From contig CBDDDG010000021.1 of NCBI GenBank assembly GCA_965226555.1, positions 375,707-439,706 on the forward strand: a DNA stretch of 64,000 nt, read 5' to 3'. Of this stretch, positions 1,258-37,447 are shown piece by piece. A program made the translations under genes and the position numbers. The first letter of the stretch is position 1, and the number at the start of each line of letters is the position of its first letter. Under the pieces are notes generated by a model. It was given only the letters and a program-made list of their open reading frames with translations, made no database searches and was not told where the DNA came from. The stretch comes from Salinispira sp. GTDB lineage: Bacteria > Spirochaetota > Spirochaetia > DSM-27196 > Salinispiraceae.

Positions 1258-1311
1258 GAAAATTTTGCATTGGAAAATTGTGCGTGCACAATTTCCAGTA
1301 GCAAAAGTTTC
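1258..1311. repeat. AT-rich nested palindromic element (outer A arms around inner B hairpin)
   Basis: GAAAATTTTGCATTGGAAAATTGTGCGTGCACAATTTCCAGTAGCAAAAGTTTC between rpsO and pnp. Confidence 0.85.
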
Positions 1312-10727: not shown

Positions 10728-10761
10728 AACCCATCATCCGGCAATGGCGATATTGGCGGAT

Positions 10762-10860
10762 TATCCCCGGGCGCATGGGCGAGCAGGCGCGGAGCGCCGA
10801 CCAGCCACGGGCGCGCGCATGGCGAGCCGGATGCTCGGTCGAGCAGGCAGAGCTGTTCCA
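10762..10860. repeat. GC-rich repeat cluster (family G) downstream of rpn
   Basis: GCATGGGCGAGCAGGCGCGGAGCGCCGACCAGCC..GCATGGCGAGCCGGATGCTCGGTCGAGCAGGCAGAGC; also at 13060-13165 and 14680-14727. Confidence 0.75.
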
Positions 10861-10861
10861 A

Positions 10862-11137
10862 TTAATGCGGTCCGTTCCGCACTGTCCGCATTTCCTCATC
10901 GCTCAGCCCGGTAACATCCTGAATGTCATGGGCTGAAAATCCTTTGGAAAACATACTGCGGGCCGTTTCTCGAATGCCTCTCGCCATTCCTTTTGCAAGA
11001 CCTTTCTGCATTCCCTGCTCAAGACCTTCAACACGACCTTTCAGAATGCCTTTCTCCATTCCCTGCTCAAGACCCTCAATCCGGCCCTTCGCAATACCTT
11101 CCCTGACGAAGGCGTTGGTAATATTATATGTCCGCAT
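10862..11137 (-). CDS. putative small intragenic Rpn antitoxin (RpnS-like), 91 aa
   Basis: AGGAG-8 nt-ATG; MRTYNITNAFVREG followed by EGxxKG repeats and a C-terminal GLSDEE helix motif. Confidence 0.6.
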   Translation of the reverse strand: MRTYNITNAFVREGIAKGRIEGLEQGMEKGILKGRVEGLEQGMQKGLAKGMARGIRETARSMFSKGFSAHDIQDVTGLSDEEMRTVRNGPH

Positions 11138-11150
11138 ACTGTTTTCTCCT

Positions 11151-11280
11151 ACTGAAACTTTTGCATTGGAAAATTGTGCAGAGCACAATTTCCAGTAGCA
11201 AAAGTTTCAAATTTGGCAGGCCTCGTTGCGCTTGGCATTCTCTCATTTTGTAGAAAGTTTTGCCTGCGGCAAAACTTTGT
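11151..11280 (-). mobile_element. 130-nt palindromic insertion in rpn
   Basis: Absent from the intact allele (CCTAG|AGGAGAAAAC); same insert at the same site at 13455-13584. Confidence 0.85.
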
Positions 11281-11345
11281 CTAGGATATAGTTTCCTGTC
11301 AATTTTCTCAAACTGTTCATACAGTTTTGGATCCAGATCTTTTAT

Positions 11346-11447
11346 ACCGAAAATTGTGCTCCGCACAATTTTCTAATCTGGATTCTCTCATCTCTATTCG
11401 TGATTCTCTCAAGATATAGAAAGTTTTGCCTGTGGCAAAACTTTGGT
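11346..11447 (-). mobile_element. 102-nt palindromic insertion in rpn
   Basis: Sense strand ACCAAAGTTTTGCC..CACAATTTTCGGT between codons GY and IKDL; absent near 13645. Confidence 0.85.
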
Positions 11448-11641
11448 ATAACCCAGCACACTCTCTGCCAGATCAGTAAAGTCTTGTGATGACAAACCGT
11501 TTAGGAGCTGCGCAATCTCTTTCAGCCCCTCAGCATTCATTTTATTGAAAATTGTGCGGAGCAAAATTTTCAGTAATGAACAGGGCTTTCCGATCGGGGT
11601 CTGAGAGGAAGGGGGCGCTGAGGCAATGCGCGGCTGTGCTG

Positions 11642-11881
11642 TTACTTTTTACCGTTTTCCCTGCTATTTTCACTACCGTTTTTCCGGGCGTTTTTCTGAA
11701 ATGCTCGAATTTCATCCTTGCTGAGCTTAGTGTACTTACGAATACGGTCTATCGACAGACCATCCATAAGCATATTGAGCGCATGATCACGCTGAGCCTG
11801 AGCTTGCCCTTGCTCAAGTCCTTGCTCAAGCCCCTGCTCAACACCTGCCCGCCATGGGTCATCTAAAAGATCTACCAACAT
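11642..11881 (-). CDS. putative small intragenic Rpn antitoxin of subfamily B, 79 aa
   Basis: GAGGAGGT-AAAACGT-ATG; MLVDLLDDPWRAGVEQGLEQGLEQG..LNMLMDGLSIDRIRKYTKLS. Confidence 0.6.
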   Translation of the reverse strand: MLVDLLDDPWRAGVEQGLEQGLEQGQAQAQRDHALNMLMDGLSIDRIRKYTKLSKDEIRAFQKNARKNGSENSRENGKK

Positions 11882-11968
11882 ACGTTTTACCTCCTCAGGA
11901 TTGTCCTGAAATAATTTCTTTGTTTCATCCCTAGTTATCTTACCAGAAAATCTCTTGAGTATCCATCC

Positions 11969-12070
11969 ACAGAAAATTGTGCTCTGCACAATTTTCCAAT
12001 GAGGATTCTCTCATCTCTATTCTTGATTCTCTCAAGGTATAGAAAGTTTTGCCACAGGCAAAACTTTGTC
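11969..12070 (-). mobile_element. 102-nt palindromic insertion in rpn-B
   Basis: Sense strand GACAAAGTTTTGCC..CACAATTTTCTGT between codons FY and GW. Confidence 0.85.
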
Positions 12071-12169
12071 ATAAAATCGCTCTTTCTTTTCGGGATTCTC
12101 ATCCTGTATTATATCTTTGAGTATGGCGATTGTTTCTTCTGTGTACTCTTCTATTGTTCCAAGATTTTC

Positions 12170-12298
12170 ACAGAAAATTGTGCTCTGCACAATTTTTCAA
12201 TAAGGATTCTCTTATCTATATTCTTGATTCTCTCAAGATATAGAAAGTTTTGCTACTGGAAATTGTGCTTGCACAATTTTCCAAGGCAAAACTTTGGT
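12170..12298 (-). mobile_element. 129-nt palindromic insertion in rpn-B (extra B hairpin nested in the A loop)
   Basis: Sense strand ACCAAAGTTTTGCC..CACAATTTTCTGT between codons YI and EN. Confidence 0.85.
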
Positions 12299-12862
12299 GA
12301 TGTACATTATTGCCGAAATAACCCCTCCGACAGCCTTCAGTTCCTTGTTGCTGAAATTACTAATGTTGATCTGATAATAGGGAGATATCCGATTTCCTGA
12401 GTGAAAATATGATTGAAAATCGAGCGTGCGCGGATTCGAATTCGTCATTGACGCGCTGCGCCTAGTGTATATCACAAGGGTGATTATCAGGTAGTCGGTT
12501 TTCTCATCCCCCGATGAGGAAAGGTCTTCGGATAGGTGATGGGCGTATGTATATATTCTCCCCGGCATGTCGCTATCCACTGTCGACTGAAACTCAATGA
12601 TGAAATACACATCAAGTGGTTTCAATTTCAGCATGTTATCGTAAAAATTGCATGTGGTTTTGTAAATGATATCGGAGACTGAACGTTTGGGGTCATCTTT
12701 GGGGATATGCTCTGAGTCAATACGCTCTATACTCCCGGGAACAATGCTCCGCGCGAGGCCTTTGTTGAAGTAGGAGTATATGAAATCCTGGAATATCTGA
12801 GCATTCCTGAAAGCATATTTCCAACTTTTGTCGTGTACCATTCCTATATATTTTCCGCTCAT

Positions 12863-13060
12863 ACCATATAGACGGGTAAAATATGAATGGTGTATGACAA
12901 AATGAGAAAGTTTTTCAAAAAGTTTTATTATTTTGAGATATTACAAAGTTTTGTTACTGAAAATTGTGCTCTGCACAATTTTCAAATGAGGATTCCCTCA
13001 AGGTATAGAAACTTTCTACAAAATGCGAGAATGCTAAGCACAAAGAAAACATTCCTGACG
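12863..13060 (-). repeat. conserved rpn upstream/leader block containing palindrome modules
   Basis: Near-identical copies at 14482-14680 and 15997-16190, inverted at about 35855-36072, partial at 53918-54000 and 63950-64000. Confidence 0.9.
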
Positions 13061-13165
13061 GACGCATGGCGAGCCGGATGCTTGGGCGAGCAGGCGCGGA
13101 GCGCCGACCAGCCCCGGGCGCATGGGCGAGCCGGATGCTTGGTCGAGCAGGCAGAGCTGTTCCAA

Positions 13166-14327
13166 TTAATGCGATCCGTTCCGCACTGTCCGCATTTCCT
13201 CATCGCTCAGCCCGGTAACATCCTGAATGTCATGGGCTGAAAATCCTTTGGAAAACATACTGCGGGCCGTTTCTCGAATGCCTCTCGCCATTCCTTTTGC
13301 AAGACCTTTCTGCATTCCCTGCTCAAGACCTTCAACACGACCTTTCAGAATGCCTTTCTCCATTCCCTGCTCAAGACCCTCAATCCGGCCCTTCGCAATG
13401 CCTTCCCTGACGAAGGCGTTGGTAATATTATATGTCCGCATACTGTTTTCTCCTCCTGAAACTTTTGCATTGGAAAATTGTGCAGAGCACAATTTCCAGT
13501 AGCAAAAGTTTCAAATTTGGCATGCATCGTTGCGCTTGGCATTCTCCCATTTTGTAGAAAGTTTTGCCTGTGGCAAAACTTTGTCTAGGATATAGTTTCC
13601 TGTTAATTTTCTCAAACTGTTCATACAGTTTTGGATCCAGATCTTTTAGATAACCCAGCACGCTCTCTGCCAGATCAGTAAAGTCTTGTGAAGACAAACC
13701 GTTCAGGAGCTGCGCAATCTCTTTCAGCCCCTCAATATTCATTTCATTATCTCGCATTATATACCACAATGCAGTCGATGTATATCGTTTTCCATCGAAA
13801 CGCCATGCCAACTGCTCCTTTTTCATTCTACAAAGATCACGCACAATGTACGACACTTTTACCCTGACATCTACCGTGCCTTCAGTCATAGATTCGGAAG
13901 CAGCATTTCCATGTGAACTGTAAAATGTGAGTGGGAGGTTCCATTCCTTTTTTCCATGGTAAAGCAGTAATATATAGATAGCATCCTTTTCATTGTACAC
14001 ATTGCTGTTTCTGAGGGCATATTGATAGTCATCGATCTGTGTGAGAACGTGTTTGTGCAGGTAGCTTTTGTGTTCAATAATAAAAAAGGCCTTCCGGTCG
14101 GGGTCTGACAGGAAGGGTGCGCTGACAACGAGAGCGCAGTGAAGGTTCTTTTTTCCTGCAATGTAGCTGGGGGTTTCAATGCGGATTTTGTCCATGTCCA
14201 GCTTGGCAAGCGTTGTATCCTCACAGAACAGGCGCAGCAGGTCGGGAATCATACGGGGGGTTCTGTAGTAGGCGATCTTGAAGGCTAGGTCGTGGATATG
14301 GTATTTGCTGTGGGATGATTTTTTCAT
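13166..14327 (-). pseudogene. Rpn subfamily A, interrupted by a 130-nt element and carrying a D-to-A change
   Basis: HIHDLAFK, LHCALVV (other copies LHCDLVV), IIEHKS; insert at 13455-13584; small ORF 13166-13441 intact. Confidence 0.85.
13455..13584 (-). mobile_element. 130-nt palindromic insertion in rpn
   Basis: Same element and site as 11151-11280, directly 5' of the internal AGGAG. Confidence 0.85.
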
Positions 14328-14727
14328 AAACATTCCTCCTACATCTATAACGGGTAAAAAGTCATTTTTGACTATGTATTTGGAAAGAATTTGAAAAGAA
14401 ATTGAAAGAATGTTGTGTTTTTTTTCGGGGAGTCGGGAATGGGGGGCTGGTATGCTCTGTGTCGATATAATCTTTGCTCATACTATATAGACGGGTAAAA
14501 TATGAATGGTGTATGACAAAATGAGAAAGTTTTTCAAAAAGTTTTATTATTTTGAGATATTACAAAGTTTTGTTACTGAAAATTGTGCTCTGCACAATTT
14601 TCAAATGAGGATTCCCTCAAGGTATAGAAACTTTCTACAAAATGCGAGAATGCTAAGCACAAAGAAAACATTCCTGACGGACGCATGGCGAGCCGGATGC
14701 TTGGTCGAGCAGGCAGAGCTGTTCCAA

Positions 14728-15765
14728 TTAATGCGATCCGTTCCGCACTGTCCGCATTTCCTCATCGCTCAGCCCGGTAACATCCTGAATGTCATGGGCT
14801 GAAAATCCTTTGGAAAACATACTGCGGGCCGTTTCTCGAATGCCTCTCGCCATTCCTTTTGCAAGACCTTTCTGCATTCCCTGCTCAAGACCCTCAACCC
14901 GACCTTTCAGAATGCCTTTCTCCATTCCTTTCAGAATGCCCTTCTCCATTCCCTCAATTCGGCCCTTCGCAATGCCTTCCCTGACGAAGGCGTTGGTTAT
15001 GTTATATGTCCGCATACTGTTTTCTCCTCTAGGGTACAGTTTCCTGTTAATTTTCTCAAACTGCTCATACAGTCCCAAGTCCTTCAGGTAACCCAGCACA
15101 CTCTCTGCTAGATCAGTAAAGTCTTGTGAAGACAAACCGTTCAGGAGCTGCGCAATCTCTTTCAGCCCCTCAGCGTTCATTTCATTATCTCTCATCATAT
15201 ACCACAACGCAGTCGATGTATATCGTTTTCCATCGAAACGCCATGCCAACTGCTTCTTTGTCATTCGCCTCAGATCGCGCACGATGTACGACACTTTCAC
15301 CTTGACATCTACCGTGCCTTCGGTAAGGGATTCGGAAGCAGCATTTCCATGAGAACTGTAAAATGTGAGTGGGAGGTTCCATTCCTTTTTTCCATGGTAG
15401 AGCAGCAGTATATAGATAGCATCCCTTTCATTGTACACATTGCTGGTTCTGAGGGCATGCTGATAGTCATCAATCTGTGTGAGAGCATGTTTGTGCTGGT
15501 AGCTTTTATGTTCAATAATAAAAAGGGCCTTCCGGTCGGGGTCTGACAGGAAGGGAGCGCTGACAACGAGATCGCAGTGAAGGTTCTTTTTTCCCGCAAT
15601 GTAGCTGGGATTTTCAATGCGGATTTTGTCCATGTCCAGCTTGGCAAGCGTCGTATCCGTACAGAACAGCCGCAGCAGGTCGGGAATCATACGGGGGGTT
15701 CTGTAGTAGGCGAGCTTGAAGGCTATGTCGTGGATATGGCCTGTGCTCTGGGATGATTTTTTCAT
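14728..15765 (-). CDS. Rpn family recombination-promoting nuclease/putative transposase (PD-(D/E)xK), subfamily A, intact, 345 aa
   Basis: HDIAFK, CDLVV, IIEHKS, LLLYHG, C-terminal EGMEKG repeats; RBS AGGAGG before MKKSS; internal ATG at 15015. Confidence 0.88.
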   Translation of the reverse strand: MKKSSQSTGHIHDIAFKLAYYRTPRMIPDLLRLFCTDTTLAKLDMDKIRIENPSYIAGKKNLHCDLVVSAPFLSDPDRKALFIIEHKSYQHKHALTQIDDYQHALRTSNVYNERDAIYILLLYHGKKEWNLPLTFYSSHGNAASESLTEGTVDVKVKVSYIVRDLRRMTKKQLAWRFDGKRYTSTALWYMMRDNEMNAEGLKEIAQLLNGLSSQDFTDLAESVLGYLKDLGLYEQFEKINRKLYPRGENSMRTYNITNAFVREGIAKGRIEGMEKGILKGMEKGILKGRVEGLEQGMQKGLAKGMARGIRETARSMFSKGFSAHDIQDVTGLSDEEMRTVRNGSH

Positions 15766-15869
15766 AAATATTCCTCCTACATCTATAACGGGTAAAAAGT
15801 CATTTTTAACTATGTATGTGGAAAGAATTTTGCAAAATGTGTGAATTTTTTTCGGGGGATGGGGGAATG

Positions 15870-15996
15870 CGGGGACAATGCTCCGCGCGAGGTCTTTATT
15901 GAAGTAGGAGTATGTGAAGTTTCTGAATATCTGAGCATTCCTGAAAGCATATTTCCAACTTTTGTCGTGTACCATTCCTATATATTTTCCGCTCAT
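15870..15996 (-). pseudogene. N-terminal stub of Rpn subfamily B upstream of rpn-A
   Basis: MSGKYIGMVHDKSWKYAFRNAQIF..LARSIVP nearly identical to 12862-12737. Confidence 0.8.
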
Positions 15997-16246
15997 ACCA
16001 TATAGACGGGTAAAATATGAATGGTGTATGACAAAATGAGAAAGTTTTTCAAAAAGTTTTATTATTTTGAGATATTACAAAGTTTTGTTACTGAAAATTG
16101 TGCTCTGCACAATTTTCAAATGAGGATTCCCTCAAGGTATAGAAACTTTCTATAAAATGCGAGAATGCTAAGCACAAAGACAGCATTCCAAATGAGATAT
16201 TGACCTGAGCCCCCGTCTCAGCAACAGGCGCATAGGCGAGCTATCG

Positions 16247-16310: not shown

Positions 16311-18608
16311 CTACTGGTTATACCATGTTGGAAAGGCTACATCGCCTGTTTGGCCGCGGCCCACCTTGGAATTCCGAAACATATTGGTGTCGGTTCCGGT
16401 AAATGTGCTGGGGGTATCCGTGTCCATATCCTTATCTTCGAGTGTCAAATGATCCTTCCACTCCTCAAGATCCTGATTGAATGCGCTTGCTCCATCGAAC
16501 ATTTGAGTCATATTCGGTGCCGCAGCAATTGTCCAGCCGGAAATATCCTGATTGAAACTGGTTGCTCCATCGAACATATAGGACATATTCGTTACCTTAC
16601 TGACATCACCCCATCCCGAGATATCGCCATTGAAACTGGTTGCTTCAGCGAACATATAGGACATATTCGTTACCGAGCTGACATCCCAGCCAGAGATATT
16701 CTGATTGAATGCGCTTGCTTGAGCGAACATACCGAACATACTCGTTACCGAACTGACATCCCAGTTTGAGATATCTTGATCGAATGCGCTTACTTCCTGG
16801 AACATCTGAGTCATAAATGTTACCGAACTGACATTCCACTTCGAGATATCGCCATTGAATGCGTCTGCGTTATAGAACATACTGTTCATACTCGTTACCG
16901 AACTGACATCCCAGCGTGAGATGTCGCCATTGAATTCGCCTGGGTTATGGAAAATAGTGGTCATATCCGTTACTGCCGTGGTAACAATGTAGTTGAGATC
17001 GGCAGTATTGCCCCAATTACTTATTCCCGCAGCTACCGCTGCGTCCAGTTCATCGTTACCGCCATCGGTATTAGCAGCGCCCGCGCTGCCATCGCCATCA
17101 GCAGGTCTCACGGTAACATAAAACTTTTCGGTAAGCCGTGTATTCTCATCGGTTCCGTCTATGACAGATACATTGTATGTTCCTGCCGTTGTACTTGCGG
17201 CAACCGTAATAACTCCGGTACGTGCGTCAACTGTCGGCAGGGTAACGGTAACCCCTGAGGGCGGGGAAGTAACCCCAGCCACAGTAACGCTTGGATTCTC
17301 CGCATTGGCAGCGGCGTCATCAATGTCAGCCGAAAGAATGACGGATGTTGTTGATGTACCAAAGGGAACCTGTGCCGCAAGCGGCAGCAGTGTTCTCGTT
17401 GCGGAGGCAGACCAGCCGCCAGTGCCCAGCGCGTTAACGGCGCGCACCTGCACATTGTAGGAGGTGCCGTCGTTCGTCAGGCTCGGGATGGTGTAGCTCG
17501 TAGCACTGATAGGGTCGGTGACCAGCGTCCAGTTAGTTCCGCTGTCTGAACTATACTGCACATCATATGAGGTAATGGGGCTGCCGCCGTTGTTGGGCGC
17601 TGTCCATATCGCGGTGAGCTGGGTGTCTCCAACTGTGAGCCTGGGAGCATTCGGCATGGCAGGAGGCCCAATAGGGGTTGCGGTGCCGGTCGCTGGGTTG
17701 CCATTGCCCTCTGTATTGACAGCGTAGACCCGCGCCTCATACTCGGTGCCGTTTGTCAGGTTGGGGATGGTGAGGGTGTAGGTGTCGGCATCGGCGGTTG
17801 CAATGACAGGTTCCCACGCGCTTACTCCGACTACGCGATGTTGCAGTTCATAGCGAATAATGTCGCTGTCGCCAGTATCGGTCGGCGCAGCCCATGTTGC
17901 GGTAATTGTCGTATCGTCCGCTGCGAGCGTGAACGCAGTCGGCGCCAAGGAAACGGTAATAGGGGTTTCTGTGGAAGATTCCGACCAGTTTCCCGCACCA
18001 TGCGCATTGACCGCGCGCAGCCGCACATCGTAGGGGGTGCCGTTTGTCAGCCCGGTAATGGTGGAGCGTGAGGTCGGAGGAGTAATAATGGCGGTATCTG
18101 TATCGTCCGCTGGCCAGTCTGCGCTGCTTTGTTTGTGCTACACATGGTACGCGGTAATTTCGCTATCGCCGGTTTCTTCCGGCGGAGTCCAGTTAACCGT
18201 TAGTTGCTTATTCCCCGCTTCAAGGATTGGGGCAGCCATGGTGCCCGGCACGGCTGGTTCAGGTACATCTGAATTCTGCCGGGTATAGACAGTGCCATCC
18301 AATGTTAAGGTATCTCCATCAATGGTATACTCTACCGTTGCCCCATTACGGTTTTCCGCTCCTTCTCCTATACAATTACTGAACGTAATTGAGTTTCCGT
18401 TATCCGTGTAATCACAAATAACCTCCAAAAACACATCTATGTACGTTGTCGCGGTGAATTCTATGGTATGAAACTCATTATCCGCGGTCCACACGCCTAT
18501 TAGGGGAGATGTATCCATGGGCACTGGTTCCGGTTCCGTCATTGGTTCCGGTTCCGGCAGTGGACATCCGGCAAGTAATGCGATGAGAACCACGCTCATT
18601 ATAATCAA
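16311..18608 (-). pseudogene. FN3 + DUF285/BspA-like repeat surface lipoprotein with an in-frame TAG
   Basis: ORFs 18138-18608 and 16311-18026 are in the same frame, separated by TAG at 18138-18140 inside an FN3 domain; lipobox LLAGC; 7 FNxDISxWxVS repeats. Confidence 0.85.
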
Positions 18609-18727: not shown

Positions 18728-18763
18728 TATAGAAAGTTTTGCATTTTGCAAAACTTTGTTATA
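18728..18763. repeat. solo A hairpin of the palindromic family
   Basis: TATAGAAAGTTTTGCATTTTGCAAAACTTTGTTATA. Confidence 0.75.
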
Positions 18764-21670: not shown

Positions 21671-21733
21671 TATAGAAAGTTTTGCTACTGGAAATTGTGC
21701 TTGCACAATTTTCCAATGCAAAAGTTTGTTATA
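21671..21733. repeat. nested A+B palindromic element
   Basis: GAAAGTTTTGCTACTGGAAATTGTGCTTGCACAATTTTCCAATGCAAAAGTTTG upstream of greA. Confidence 0.85.
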
Positions 21734-34247: not shown

Positions 34248-35657
34248 ATGAGAACTAGGTCATACTCAGGAACAATCCTTTGCATTTTCTGCTCAATACT
34301 TATTGCATTGATTGCCGGATGTCCAATGCCGGAACCAGAACCAATGCCGGAACCAGAACTAACCGCGCCGGGTACCATGGCTGCTCCAACCCTCACAGCA
34401 GGGAACGGGCAAGTAACTGTTGAATGGGTTGCGCCGACCAGCGATGGCGGCAGCGCAATTACCGCGTATGAGCTGCAATATCGATCGGCCGGAAGTGAAT
34501 CTGATTGGAAGTTAATCTATTCCGGTATTGATGGCACAGATCACACCATCACCCATGTGGCAAATAACATCAGCTACGAGGTACAGGTTCGTGCTGTCAA
34601 CGCTGTTGGCAATGGTCCATGGTCCGCAACAGCAACATCAATGTTGCCGTTTGCAACACAGGTTCCCGCGGGGACAGCGGCGCTCGTACTTCTTTCGGCT
34701 GATATTGATACCCGTATTGCCGCTGAGAACCTCGCCGTTTTTTTGACCACGGTAGAGCCGGGCACATACGCGGTCGATGAATCAGATGTCATTACGATAA
34801 CCCCCGCAACTGTGCCCGAAAATGTCACCCCGCCGACAGTTGATGTAAGTACCGGAATTATTACCGTTACAGCAAATACAACGGCAGGAACATATCTGGT
34901 ATACGGCAGTAAAACAGGAACCGGAGACATACTGTTTGCCGAATATTTCTATGTTACTGTGAGTCCTCAAGATAGTGATGGTAATAATGATGGCGGTAAT
35001 GGTGAACTGAAAATGGCGGTAACTGAAGGGATATCTGTTTTGGGCACAGAAGTCATGGTTGATACTGACACCACCTATACCTATGCCGATCTCAACTACA
35101 TTGTTACCACGGCAATAAGGGATATGTCTGAGGTGTTCAAGAATAACAGCACATTCAATGGCGATATCTCACTCTGGGATGTCAGTTCAGTAACGGATAT
35201 AAACAATATGTTCAATAGCGCAGTCGCATTCAATGGTGATATCTCGGGCTGGGATGTCAGTAAAGTAACAAATATGAGTGGATTGCTCGGTTCCGCCAAC
35301 GCATTCAATGGCGATATCTCTGTTTGGGATACTGGCACGGTAACGAATATGAGCAATATGTTCACTTTTGCAATCTCATTCAATGGCGATATCTCACTCT
35401 GGGATGTCAGTTCGGTAATGAATATGAGCTCCATGTTCGGTTTAGCAAGCTCATTCAATGGCGATATCTCCGGTTGGGATGTCAGCTCGGTAGCGAATAT
35501 GGAATATATGTTTAATATAGCAAGCGCATTCAATCAAGATCTTGAGGAGTGGAAGGATCATTGGACGCTTGATGGTAATGGCAAATATACCGGATTTAAA
35601 ACAGGTATGTTTGTGAGTTCCGGCGTGACAGGTAGTCTGGTGCCGTCATGGTATTAG
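34248..35657 (+). CDS. FN3 + DUF285/BspA-like repeat surface lipoprotein
   Basis: Lipobox LIAGC, PEP linker, FN3 ([12 protein letters not shown]), 6 FNGDISxWDVS repeats. Confidence 0.9.
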   Translation: MRTRSYSGTILCIFCSILIALIAGCPMPEPEPMPEPELTAPGTMAAPTLTAGNGQVTVEWVAPTSDGGSAITAYELQYRSAGSESDWKLIYSGIDGTDHTITHVANNISYEVQVRAVNAVGNGPWSATATSMLPFATQVPAGTAALVLLSADIDTRIAAENLAVFLTTVEPGTYAVDESDVITITPATVPENVTPPTVDVSTGIITVTANTTAGTYLVYGSKTGTGDILFAEYFYVTVSPQDSDGNNDGGNGELKMAVTEGISVLGTEVMVDTDTTYTYADLNYIVTTAIRDMSEVFKNNSTFNGDISLWDVSSVTDINNMFNSAVAFNGDISGWDVSKVTNMSGLLGSANAFNGDISVWDTGTVTNMSNMFTFAISFNGDISLWDVSSVMNMSSMFGLASSFNGDISGWDVSSVANMEYMFNIASAFNQDLEEWKDHWTLDGNGKYTGFKTGMFVSSGVTGSLVPSWY

Positions 35658-35707: not shown

Positions 35708-35783
35708 AGGCAGGCGCGGATTTTCCCCCGGATGCTTGGGCGAGCAGGCGTGCAACGCCGACCAGCCCGTGCCTGCCTTTTTT
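35708..35783 (+). terminator. terminator with a family-G repeat in its loop
   Basis: AGGCAGGCGCG..CGTGCCTGCCTTTTTT; loop about 45 nt versus about 10 nt in the paralogous terminators. Confidence 0.65.
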
Positions 35784-36318
35784 CGATAGAGACGGCTGAT
35801 CGGCGTACGCTTGGGCTGGTCAGAGGCCTGCGCCTTCTGCTCGCCCAAGCATCCATCAGGAATGCTTTCTTTGTGCTGAGCATTCTCCTATTTCATAGAA
35901 AGTTTCTATACCTTGAGAGAATCAAGAATATGGATGAGAGAATCCTCATTTGAAAATTGTGCAGAGCAAAATTTTCAATAGCAAAACTCTGTAATATCCC
36001 AAAATAATAAAACTTTTTCAAAAACTTTCTCATTTTGTCATACACCATTCATATTTTACCCGTCTATATAGTATGAGCAAAAAATATATTGGTATGGTAC
36101 ACGCTGAAAATATGTTTTCGGGAATGTTCAGATATTCCGGCACTTCATATATTCATACTTCAACAAAGGCCTCGCGGGGAGCATGGAGAGCATCAACACA
36201 GAGCATACCATCCCCCATTCCCGACTCCCCGAAAAAAATTCACAAATTTTGCAAAATTCTTTCCAAATACATAGTCAAGAATGACTTTTTACCCGTCACA
36301 GATGTAGGAGGAATGTTT

Positions 36319-37447
36319 ATGAAAAAATCATCCCACAGCACAGGACACATCCACGACATAGCCTTCAAGATCGCCTACTACAGAACCCCCCGTATGATTC
36401 CCGACCTGCTGCGGTTGTTCTGTGAGGATACAACGCTTACCAAGCTGGACATGGACAAAATCCGCATTGAAAACCCCAGTTACATTGCGGGAAAAAAGAA
36501 CCTTCACTGCGATCTCGTTGTCAGCGCCCCCTTTCTGTCAGACCCCGACCGGAAAGCTCTATTCATTATTGAGCATAAAAGCTACCAGCACAAACATGCT
36601 CACACACAGATTGATGACTATCAGCATGCCCTCAGAAACAGCAATGTGTACAATGAAAATGATGCTATCTATATACTTCTGTTTTACCATGGAAAAAAGG
36701 AATGGAACCTCCAGCGCGAATTTTACAGTTCGCATGGAAATGCTGCTTCCGAATCCCTTACCGAAGGCACGGTAGATGTCAGGGTGAAAGTGTCGTACAT
36801 TGTGCGCGATCTTTGTAGAATGACAAAGAAACAGTTGGCATGGCGTTTCGATGGAAAACGATATACATCGACTGCGTTGTGGTATATAATGCGAGATAAT
36901 AACAAAGTTTTTCCTTTAGGAAAAACTTTCTATACCGTGAGAGAATCAAGAGTATAGATGAGAGAATCCTCATTTGAAAATTGTGCAGAGCACAATTTTC
37001 AGTGAAATGGACACTGAGGGGCTGAAAGAGATTGCGCAGCTCCTGAACGGTCTGTCATCACAAGACTTTACTGATCTGGCAGAGAGTGTGCTAGGCTATC
37101 TGAAAGATTTGGGACTGTATGAGCAGTTTGAGAAAATTGACAGGGAACTGTTCCCTGGAGGAGAAAACAGTATGCGGACATATAATATTACAAACGCCTT
37201 CGTCAGAGAAGGAATGGAGAAAGGTATGGAAAAGGGTATTCTGAAAGGAATGGAGAGGGGCATTCTGAAAGGACGGGTTGAGGGAATGGAGAAAGGTATT
37301 CTGAAAGGTCGCGCTGAGGGGCATATTGAGGAGCGGAGAAAAAACGCCCGCAGTATGTTTTCGGAAGGCTTGTCAACAGAGGCTGTTCAGAGGATTACCG
37401 GGCTGAGCGATGAGGAAATGCGGACAGTGCGGAACGGATCGCATTAA
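36319..37447 (+). pseudogene. Rpn subfamily A interrupted by a 103-nt element (341 aa when removed)
   Basis: CDLVV/IIEHKS intact; insert 36901-37003 between RDN and EMD; small ORF 37172-37447 intact; degraded B stub from 36073. Confidence 0.87.
36901..37003 (+). mobile_element. 103-nt palindromic insertion in rpn
   Basis: AACAAAGTTTTTCCTTTAGGAAAAACTTTC-linker-GAAAATTGTGCAGAGCACAATTTTCAGT; absent at 54850. Confidence 0.87.

Follow-up and report, generated by a model that had tools for sequence, protein, structure and literature searches.

Elements of the IS200/IS605 type and repetitive extragenic palindromes with their associated tyrosine transposases (REP/RAYT) have hairpin ends, make no target duplication and can be removed with the target restored. 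MITEs (miniature transposable elements with inverted repeats) mobilised by an insertion sequence (IS) are short, gene-less and mainly intergenic; the term is used here as defined in the excerpt of PMC11602168. Rickettsia palindromic elements (RPEs) lie inside coding sequence, and the Rpn/YhgA nuclease genes contain genes within genes. Here, we analysed a stretch of 64,000 nt from Salinispira sp. (the window; contig CBDDDG010000021.1), in which hairpin-ended inserts interrupt Rpn genes. The inserts belong to a family that is best classed as an IS5-type MITE, and its copies in the Rpn genes are likely exchanged among paralogues.

The source genome comprises 2.98 Mb on 26 contigs (abbreviated C; the window is C21:375707-439706) and is 93.5% complete. 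The polynucleotide phosphorylase (PNPase) of the window is 76-77% identical to that of Salinispira sp. assemblies, the best match among 80 loci listed.

Element family and target duplication

Family loci were defined by BLAST and arm clustering. The source genome holds 631 loci, covering 53 kb, and the commonest core lengths are 25-127 bp. The core, bounded by the first left arm and the last right arm, was definable for 426 of the 631 loci, corresponding to 263 unique sites. A perfect 5-bp direct repeat was found at 69 of the 263 unique sites, and shuffles gave a mean of 2.3 and a maximum of 6. No other repeat length from 1 to 10 rose above the shuffle range at these sites. The target consensus was c-T-A-W-T-A-g in AT-rich DNA. 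The ends at perfect-duplication sites were variants of one word of 11-12 bp. Members of this kind in the window are:

1258..1311, no strand assigned: 54-bp member at the 5' end of pnp, flanked by ATGTA as a perfect 5-bp duplication
18732..18758, no strand assigned: 27-bp minimal member (end, 5 nt, end) with the perfect duplication TTATA
21675..21728, no strand assigned: 54-bp member with the perfect duplication TTATA

The duplication was also found in a strain pair with a filled and an empty site. The single match among genome contigs was the public contig L084, which is 95.6% identical to contig C16 of the source genome over 1,399 bp. In L084, two GAATA flank a 126-bp copy, whereas C16 has a single AAATA at this place. 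The record is labelled Anderseniella sp. and, judging by its similarity and its MITE copy, is likely a misbinned spirochaete contig. The simple hairpin pattern had 358 matches in the source genome. It had none in seven genomes of the family, and 1 of 30 relatives gave one unrelated-looking match. The linker pattern was absent from metagenome and viral contigs; one lone hairpin was found in metagenome contig L139, which is otherwise without similarity to the source genome.

A partner was sought by comparing the ends of multi-copy IS families with the MITE ends. The partner element is 1,340 bp long (type copy C18:62204-63543) and has 11 left ends. Seven of the 11 copies have a perfect 5-bp duplication (TTATA, TATTA, ACGTA, TTATA, TAATA, TATAA and TCATA). 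An open transposase frame is present in seven copies (six of 1,340 bp and one longer), which are 98.6-100% identical. The transposase, a protein of 338 aa, belongs to the IS5 family (NF033581, 228 bits at a cut-off of 140) and has the domains DUF772 (PF05598) and DDE_Tnp_1 (PF01609). The ends of the element, GAAACCTTTGCA and GAAACTTTTGAA, are each identical in 11 of 12 bases to the commonest MITE end, GAAACTTTTGCA, which accounts for 35 of 138 ends. The partner ends may resemble those of IS1106. The B-type ends of some Rpn inserts match the end word less well. From the ends and the duplication, the resident IS5 transposase likely moves the MITE.

The 5-bp duplication, the filled/empty strain pair, the IS5 element with matching ends and the absence of a Y1 match (see below) mark the family as an IS5-type MITE. 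The initial annotation, made from the letters of the window, had read the inserts as a non-autonomous element family, and this reading is supported. It had seen no cognate transposase in the window; a resident IS5-family element does share the inverted-repeat ends and the 5-bp duplication. Outside the Rpn genes, orientation to the neighbouring gene was random (19:17 and 12:11). MITE ends with a target-site duplication and random orientation, which had been named in advance as grounds for refuting the initial reading, are what was found outside the Rpn genes.

Other IS families were rejected as partner. The ends of a second IS5-family element (363-377 aa) fit the MITE less well. This element, too, generates duplications of 5 bp; at two sites, the MITE interrupts it. 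The remaining multi-copy families (those that are presumably IS481-, IS3-, IS30- and IS1182-like, and a 395-aa family) have ends unlike the MITE. The presumed IS481-like element occurs in 19-25 copies, with direct-repeat flanks of variable length, up to ~15-16 bp. Seven orphan right ends of the partner IS share a different internal sequence and are possibly another MITE or a derivative of the same IS.

C1:57591-58682, C14:98679-99812 and C21:352660-353793: second IS5-family element
C1:38881-40095 and C12:39100-40314: examples of the presumed IS481-like element
C10:557052, C2:107066, C2:84359, C1:218508, C1:329197, C26:21578 and C23:24699: orphan right ends of the partner IS

Search for other mobilisers

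An origin from HUH/Y1 elements had been suggested by the initial annotation. The 5-bp duplication and the IS5-like ends speak against it, and no match to the Y1 transposase (PF01797) was found in the 93.5% complete genome, while the same search gave matches in 6 of 14 control genomes. IS110, reverse transcriptase and serine recombinase had no match in the source genome either. The search for IS91 was uninformative because it gave no match in any control genome. Three tyrosine recombinases were matched. Nine pairs of ends, 0.4-3.5 kb apart with equal 5-mers and not plain IS copies, were candidates for composite Rpn transposons; one of the nine is an IS copy with an adjoining MITE end.

Joints were examined in the assembled contigs of five sequencing runs. 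No circle-type joint was among those listed. An empty joint at 12170-12298 occurred in the contigs of two runs; with paralogue-like differences nearby in one of them, this is no proof of excision, as empty joints in assembled contigs are indistinguishable from paralogues.

Inserts and rpn genes in the window

All six inserts reported for the window were confirmed. They consist of hairpin A, a linker and hairpin B, or of nested hairpins, and they read A-first on the coding strand, as had been described.

11151..11280, minus strand: insert at site 246, core 11154-11279 (126 bp, made up of hairpin A, linker L2 and a nested hairpin)
11346..11447, minus strand: insert at site 229, core 11349-11445 (97 bp: A, linker L1, B)
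11969..12070, minus strand: insert at site 220 of the B subfamily, core 11972-12068 (97 bp)
12170..12298, minus strand: insert at site 186, core 12173-12296 (124 bp, nested left hairpin)
13455..13584, minus strand: insert in rpn-C1, core 13458-13583 (126 bp); shares its site and origin with 11151-11280
36901..37003, plus strand: insert in rpn-D at site 194, core 36903-37000 (98 bp)
10862..11137, minus strand: short RpnS-like frame of rpn-A, 91 aa, with a GGAG motif followed by ATG and with four-residue repeats
11547..11571, no strand assigned: single B hairpin, a deletion junction in rpn-A that joins a site-85 flank to a site-194 flank
11642..12862, minus strand: rpn-B (PF04754), split by two inserts; RpnS-like ATG at 11881
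13166..14333, minus strand: rpn-C1, interrupted at site 246; Ala replaces the second catalytic Asp
14728..15765, minus strand: rpn-C2, intact, 345 aa
about 15020-15033: scar in rpn-C2, a rare junction haplotype equal to the left flank of the filled allele (2/53 empty alleles)
36319..37447, plus strand: rpn-D, interrupted at site 194; RpnS-like ATG at 37172

Five inserts were folded (those starting at 11151, 11346, 11969, 12170 and 36901), with z values of -6.1 to -8.1 (200 shuffles each). Removal of the inserts opens frames of 329 codons in rpn-B, 345 in rpn-C1 and 341 in rpn-D. The empty alleles claimed for the inserts were found in paralogues at all five sites, including both rpn-B sites, for which frame restoration had been used; at site 186, the empty allele is exact in one paralogue. 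The absence of a target duplication is true of the six window inserts, none of which has a clean one (for example, the 5-mers AATAA and AGTGA flank core 36903-37000). It is not true of the element family, given the perfect repeats described above.

A seventh hairpin (11547-11571) had been overlooked. The site flanks that it joins lie ~110 codons apart, and rpn-A is a fragment; the deletion likely arose by recombination between two inserts. The insert at 11151..11280 sits just upstream of a putative internal ribosome-binding site, and the RpnS-like frame of rpn-A is left whole by the inserts. A putative internal start, consisting of a GGAG motif and an ATG ahead of the repeat tail, is present in five of the five window rpn genes, and all five retain the RpnS-like frame downstream of the inserts. 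Judged from the frames, this fits a toxin-antitoxin model. Element remnants, also overlooked, lie upstream of four rpn units:

12933..13062, no strand assigned: one-ended element remnant upstream of rpn-B
14552-14681 and 16067-16193: remnants near-identical to 12933..13062
35855-36002: related remnant

Occurrence of inserts in Rpn genes

PF04754 (Rpn/YhgA) had 138-140 matches in the source genome and 0-4 in seven genomes of the family. At least five subfamilies were found. The Rpn genes have the Asp, Asp, Glu core with the PF04754 domain, and within the C subfamily, all three exact catalytic motifs were present in 24 of the 33 loci that lack inserts and in 14 of the 27 filled ones.

Relative to Rpn homology (own gene caller), 393 of the 631 element loci were >600 bp away, 128 within, 57 upstream and 53 downstream. 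The far copies preferred divergent spacers (119 per 250), compared with 25 per 184 convergent ones. Interruption was called when both flanks matched the same intact paralogue at the protein level, which misses most single-copy genes. It was found for 121 elements: 114 in Rpn genes and 7 in three other sites. A frame-joining test added one interrupted site, in the second IS5 transposase. The initial annotation had seen no inserts in other genes; genome-wide, this is too narrow, given the 393 distant loci and the four sites that interrupt other genes. The 114 Rpn interruptions fell into 24 flank clusters. After curation by hand (one chimeric cluster dropped, four duplicates merged, one split), 20 sites remained: 18 coding and 2 at start codons, in five subfamilies.

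We calculated the number of sites per 100,000 target-motif weight by hand. It was ~7 for Rpn genes (20 sites per about 275,000), ~35 outside Rpn genes (245 unique sites per about 709,000 intergenic weight) and ~3 for five IS families. As Rpn sites are about five-fold rarer per target weight than sites outside Rpn genes, targeting of Rpn genes is not needed: they tolerate inserts and are not hit more than neutral DNA.

The disruption of many Rpn copies, as proposed before, was confirmed. Inserts at coding sites contain stops. Of 60 near-full C-subfamily loci, 28 hold an insert, 28 are intact without one and 4 are short; the chaining behind this split undercounts some sites relative to the site-by-site allele analysis. 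None of the 28 filled loci keeps a frame of at least 330 codons. No site lies inside the RpnS-like frame. Avoidance of this frame was rejected, as the absence is not significant after weighting by target motif (the RpnS part has 12% of the target weight, p about 0.08-0.11).

Spread and probable loss of inserts among paralogues

Each insert arose once and then spread among paralogues. All 18 copies at site 194, including the rpn-D insert, have one compensated hairpin variant, which indicates a single origin. All four combinations of presence and absence were found in 6 of 10 site pairs. At three common sites, filled alleles resembled each other (identity 0.909-0.918) no more than they resembled empty ones (0.912-0.916).

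The Rpn paralogues are finely scrambled. The r2 between single-nucleotide polymorphisms (SNPs) fell from 0.196 at 1-10 nt to 0.059 at 11-25 nt. Between inserts and SNPs at 3-12 nt (17 SNPs, three sites), it was 0.007, compared with 0.183 for SNP pairs (236 non-independent pairs). At 13-30 nt, the difference between insert-SNP and SNP-SNP linkage was not significant. An assembly artefact is unlikely because linkage decays within 25 nt and contig pieces of 97-170 nt without differences were found in two runs of one sample, possibly the source of the assembly.

Some empty alleles have scars at the insert edge. At site 246, 2 of 53 empty alleles hold the filled left edge and 2 the right edge. These alleles are all open frames (331-448 codons), and one of them is rpn-C2 of the window. 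As the two reciprocal forms cannot both be the ancestral target, exchange extends as far as the insert edge and can produce an open gene. Among the 51 empty alleles at site 85, 3 have Thr for a conserved Ile beside the catalytic Glu, and 2 of these are open frames. At site 194, 7 of 48 empty alleles are ambiguous as scars. The single origin with subsequent spread, the lack of SNP linkage at 3-12 nt and the edge scars suggest that paralogue recombination likely both adds and removes inserts. The silencing had been called perhaps reversible. The scars and the linkage support this indirectly, with paralogue recombination being more likely than a dedicated excision.

Junctions at the Rpn sites

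Comparison with the best empty alleles, of which many are exact over 26 nt, shows that an insert at an Rpn site adds 1-2 left-hand and 3 right-hand bases to the core. The extra bases (4-5 in total) are A, AA, AC or GA on the left and mostly NGT on the right. The ends NNCAAAG..TTTTCNGT without duplication, which were given for some of the window inserts, are therefore correct for the Rpn inserts as a class. The statement that all inserts are in sense orientation holds for the six in the window; genome-wide, antisense inserts occur at 2 of the 18 coding sites in Rpn genes.

The 5' flanks of the Rpn sites share no fixed target word (TAAT, TTAT, CATC, CGAT, CGTT, CCCT, TTAA and others). GT at +2/+3 occurred at 30 of 245 sites outside Rpn genes, which is the chance level. 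The NGT junction was also seen at one site in an IS5 transposase and within a MITE linker, both of which are multi-copy targets. Age was rejected as an explanation of the odd junctions: intergenic copies with the linker subtypes of the Rpn inserts show perfect duplications. A fossil target and a perfecting of hairpins were rejected because of misfit sites such as 85 and 186 (reasoned from empty alleles).

Candidate mechanisms

We consider it fairly probable that the IS5 transposase scatters the MITE, that selection leaves intergenic copies and those in Rpn genes, and that exchange between paralogues toggles the Rpn inserts. The transposase would insert elements into AT-rich targets, and insertions would be retained chiefly in intergenic DNA and in Rpn copies that are redundant and potentially toxic. 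Hairpin loops in a heteroduplex are handled apart from mismatches. Heteroduplexes of filled and empty paralogues would loop out the hairpin insert, which could then be copied or removed apart from its flanks. Rpn copies would thereby be switched off and sometimes back on. The weakest step concerns the NN-core-NGT junctions, which would be ends so remodelled that they are beyond excision by the transposase. In a multi-copy gene, copies that are still excisable would be repaired from empty paralogues, so that locked copies would survive. Flank bases affect excision in mariner (excerpt of PMC2800235).

Several observations weigh against this mechanism. Read in element orientation, G stands at +2 past the right end in 19 of the 20 Rpn sites, compared with 3 of the 54 linker-bearing sites elsewhere (Fisher p 1e-13); one of these 3 is an Rpn chimera. 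Perfect duplications were found at 2 of 20 Rpn sites, and in 1 of 10 copies of a third, compared with 23 of 54 elsewhere. Sense orientation was seen at 16 of 18 coding Rpn sites (p 0.001), and at 14 of 15 after merging homologous positions (p 0.001). Plain IS5 transposition leaves the NN-core-NGT junctions unexplained. Their difference from a duplication, about 2.5 in 10 bases, exceeds the 2-6% divergence of same-site copies. Chance locking mutations would not obviously converge on NGT, and the locked-end step is weak: it gives no account of the convergence on G or of the sense bias. Moreover, a multi-copy site upstream of rpn genes still holds at least 10 two-ended copies whose duplications are near-intact (10/78 units), which counts against the proposed survival of locked copies. 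The DUF285 and FG-repeat families have equal target weight and no interrupting site, so dispensability alone may be an incomplete explanation of the confinement to Rpn genes. As for the toggling, loci free of all inserts are in excess (33/60, with 27.0 expected, p 0.003). Decay is seen in deletions between inserts (window 11547; C2:50549) and in the catalytic Asp-to-Ala change of rpn-C1. The scars could reflect short conversion tracts that end at the insert edge in a recipient that was never filled. Loss of mutS or mutL does not account for the patchy conversion, as both genes are present in the source genome.

The junctions and the sense bias would be met by two routes, with IS5 making the intergenic copies and a second, duplication-free and strand-biased route leading into Rpn genes. 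We regard this main rival as unlikely. The second route would involve a circle over a 5-nt spacer (NGT joined to AC, AA or GA) and a crossover between target bases 3 and 4, and it would be precisely reversible. The enzyme would be Rpn (cutting, then primer-template switching) or an HUH-like enzyme that is missing from the assembly or lost. At nearly every site, the 4-5 extra bases fit a left part of 1-2 and a right part of 3. Linker subtypes of Rpn inserts have perfect duplications intergenically, so age is not the cause, and the unlinked flanking SNPs and the scars would fit precise reversal. RpnA leaves 3'-OH ends able to prime template switching (excerpt of PMC5350276). However, the added bases match the IS5 duplication in length, and ordinary duplications are seen at 2-3 of the Rpn sites. 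The expected circle was not among the joints listed, and the NGT form was found in 1 of 11 head-to-tail spacers of the genome. The enzymes searched for (Y1, IS110, reverse transcriptase, serine recombinase) were not found, and neither was a fixed target motif. The same junction occurs at the IS5-transposase site and inside a linker, and same-site copies of one origin point to spread by copying rather than repeated insertion. In the excerpts, RpnA is described as being without sequence specificity (PMC5350276), and Rpn proteins are argued not to be transposases, with no evidence that Rpn transposes (PMC10400941). The fuller form of this proposal is equally doubtful. It takes the inserts as stochastic on/off cassettes across a 140-copy family, with toxin frames lost and antitoxin frames kept.

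A one-way decay, in which MITEs kill redundant rpn genes and duplication and conversion spread them without reactivation, appears improbable. The excess of insert-free loci agrees with dead copies collecting more inserts, as do the deletions between inserts and the catalytic change in rpn-C1 with decay. But the reciprocal scars lie in open frames, linkage is lacking at 3-12 nt, and about 20 sites in five subfamilies share a junction signature that would have to be the by-product of few old events, which is too many for chance. Even less probable is a role in RNA or translation, where sense inserts would be removed or bypassed in the mRNA or would restart translation of the C-terminal antitoxin part. 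The sense bias, the sparing of the RpnS-like frame and an element GTG or TTG in phase with the downstream frame at 7 of 9 B-ended sense sites favour it. Yet the antisense sites share the junction in element orientation, the sparing is not significant on so small a share of target weight, and matched take-off and landing codons were absent. The inserts are also too short for any self-splicing intron known to us. Mobilisation of the whole family by an HUH enzyme, as REP or IS200/IS605-type palindromes with incidental duplications, is largely refuted and has barely any chance of being correct. It would explain the hairpin ends and the lack of duplication at most Rpn sites, and the genome is only 93.5% complete. 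Against this, the duplication is far above chance and recurs in the strain pair, an IS5 with matching ends is present, Y1 is unmatched while controls match, orientation is random outside Rpn genes and convergent spacers are depleted.

If the IS5-based mechanism alone is true, the result is a clean pair of MITE and IS5 with a smallest unit of 27 bp. The hairpin inserts would be alleles that reassort freely and can revert, within one of the larger expansions of Rpn genes, and the dose of a toxic defence nuclease would be tunable without a dedicated switch. If the junctions mark a second integration route, this would be a new duplication-free way for a MITE to move. It would also offer a specific substrate with which to ask whether any DNA is mobilised by Rpn proteins; RecA-independent recombination by Rpn has been shown (excerpt of PMC5350276).

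Other features of the window and the genome

MITEs often adjoin ribosome-binding sites in intergenic DNA. The hairpin together with an AT-rich target could create promoter-like sites. Some elements are nested in the loop or linker of others, which points to growth in place.

A second modular repeat family, which is GC-rich, lies between most rpn units; one of its 10-mers occurs 213 times. C-type rpn genes are often preceded in frame by short N-terminal pieces of B-type rpn. Such fragments were found at window position 12862 and upstream of many C-subfamily genes. The DUF285 surface-protein family has more than 100 members, in which no MITE interruption was detected.

C2:5240, C10:429563 and C20:18022: elements nested in the loop or linker of other elements
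10740-10860, 13060-13160 and 35720-35860: GC-rich modular repeat family, separating rpn units
14728-15996: open reading frame that opens with a B-type rpn start, an example of the B-type N-terminal fragment
16311-18026 and 34248-35657: Fn3 and DUF285 surface-protein genes adjoining rpn units

Comparison with known systems

The mostly open-access literature searched yielded no paper that describes MITEs within Rpn genes or the present element family. The feature is largely familiar in kind (an IS5-type MITE together with its partner); what is unusual, and in part unexplained, is how it behaves in a very large Rpn family.

With IS-mobilised MITEs (IS5 family, NF033581), the family shares shortness, the lack of genes, high copy number, a mainly intergenic location, terminal repeats of 11-12 bp, a duplication of fixed length and a resident IS with matching ends. 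Unlike in typical MITEs, each end is a hairpin of two end-like arms, and units of 27, 54, 97-98 and 124-127 bp coexist with larger compounds. The Rpn subclass further differs in its lack of duplication, its NGT right ends and its sense bias. Hairpin ends are shared with IS200/IS605 palindromes and REP/RAYT, and the Rpn subclass resembles these in being duplication-free, orientation-biased and removable with the target restored. The family as a whole differs from them: it duplicates 5 bp, its ends are near-symmetric, no Y1 was found and there is no fixed 5' word.

Like the RPEs in the excerpt of PMC10969869, the inserts are palindromic, ~100-150 bp long and located inside coding sequence. RPEs fuse in frame into unrelated metabolic genes, whereas the inserts described here break the frame and are nearly confined to one multi-copy family. 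The Rpn/YhgA genes-within-genes, as described in the excerpts of PMC10400941 and PMC5350276, share PF04754, the Asp/Asp/Glu core, tandem arrays and a putative internal ribosome-binding motif with an ATG ahead of a four-residue-repeat tail. In comparison with these excerpts, the number of matches (138-140) is larger than the 26 copies of the high-copy example in PMC10400941, the C subfamily has Lys, not Gln, after the catalytic Glu, and about half of this subfamily is interrupted by the MITE.

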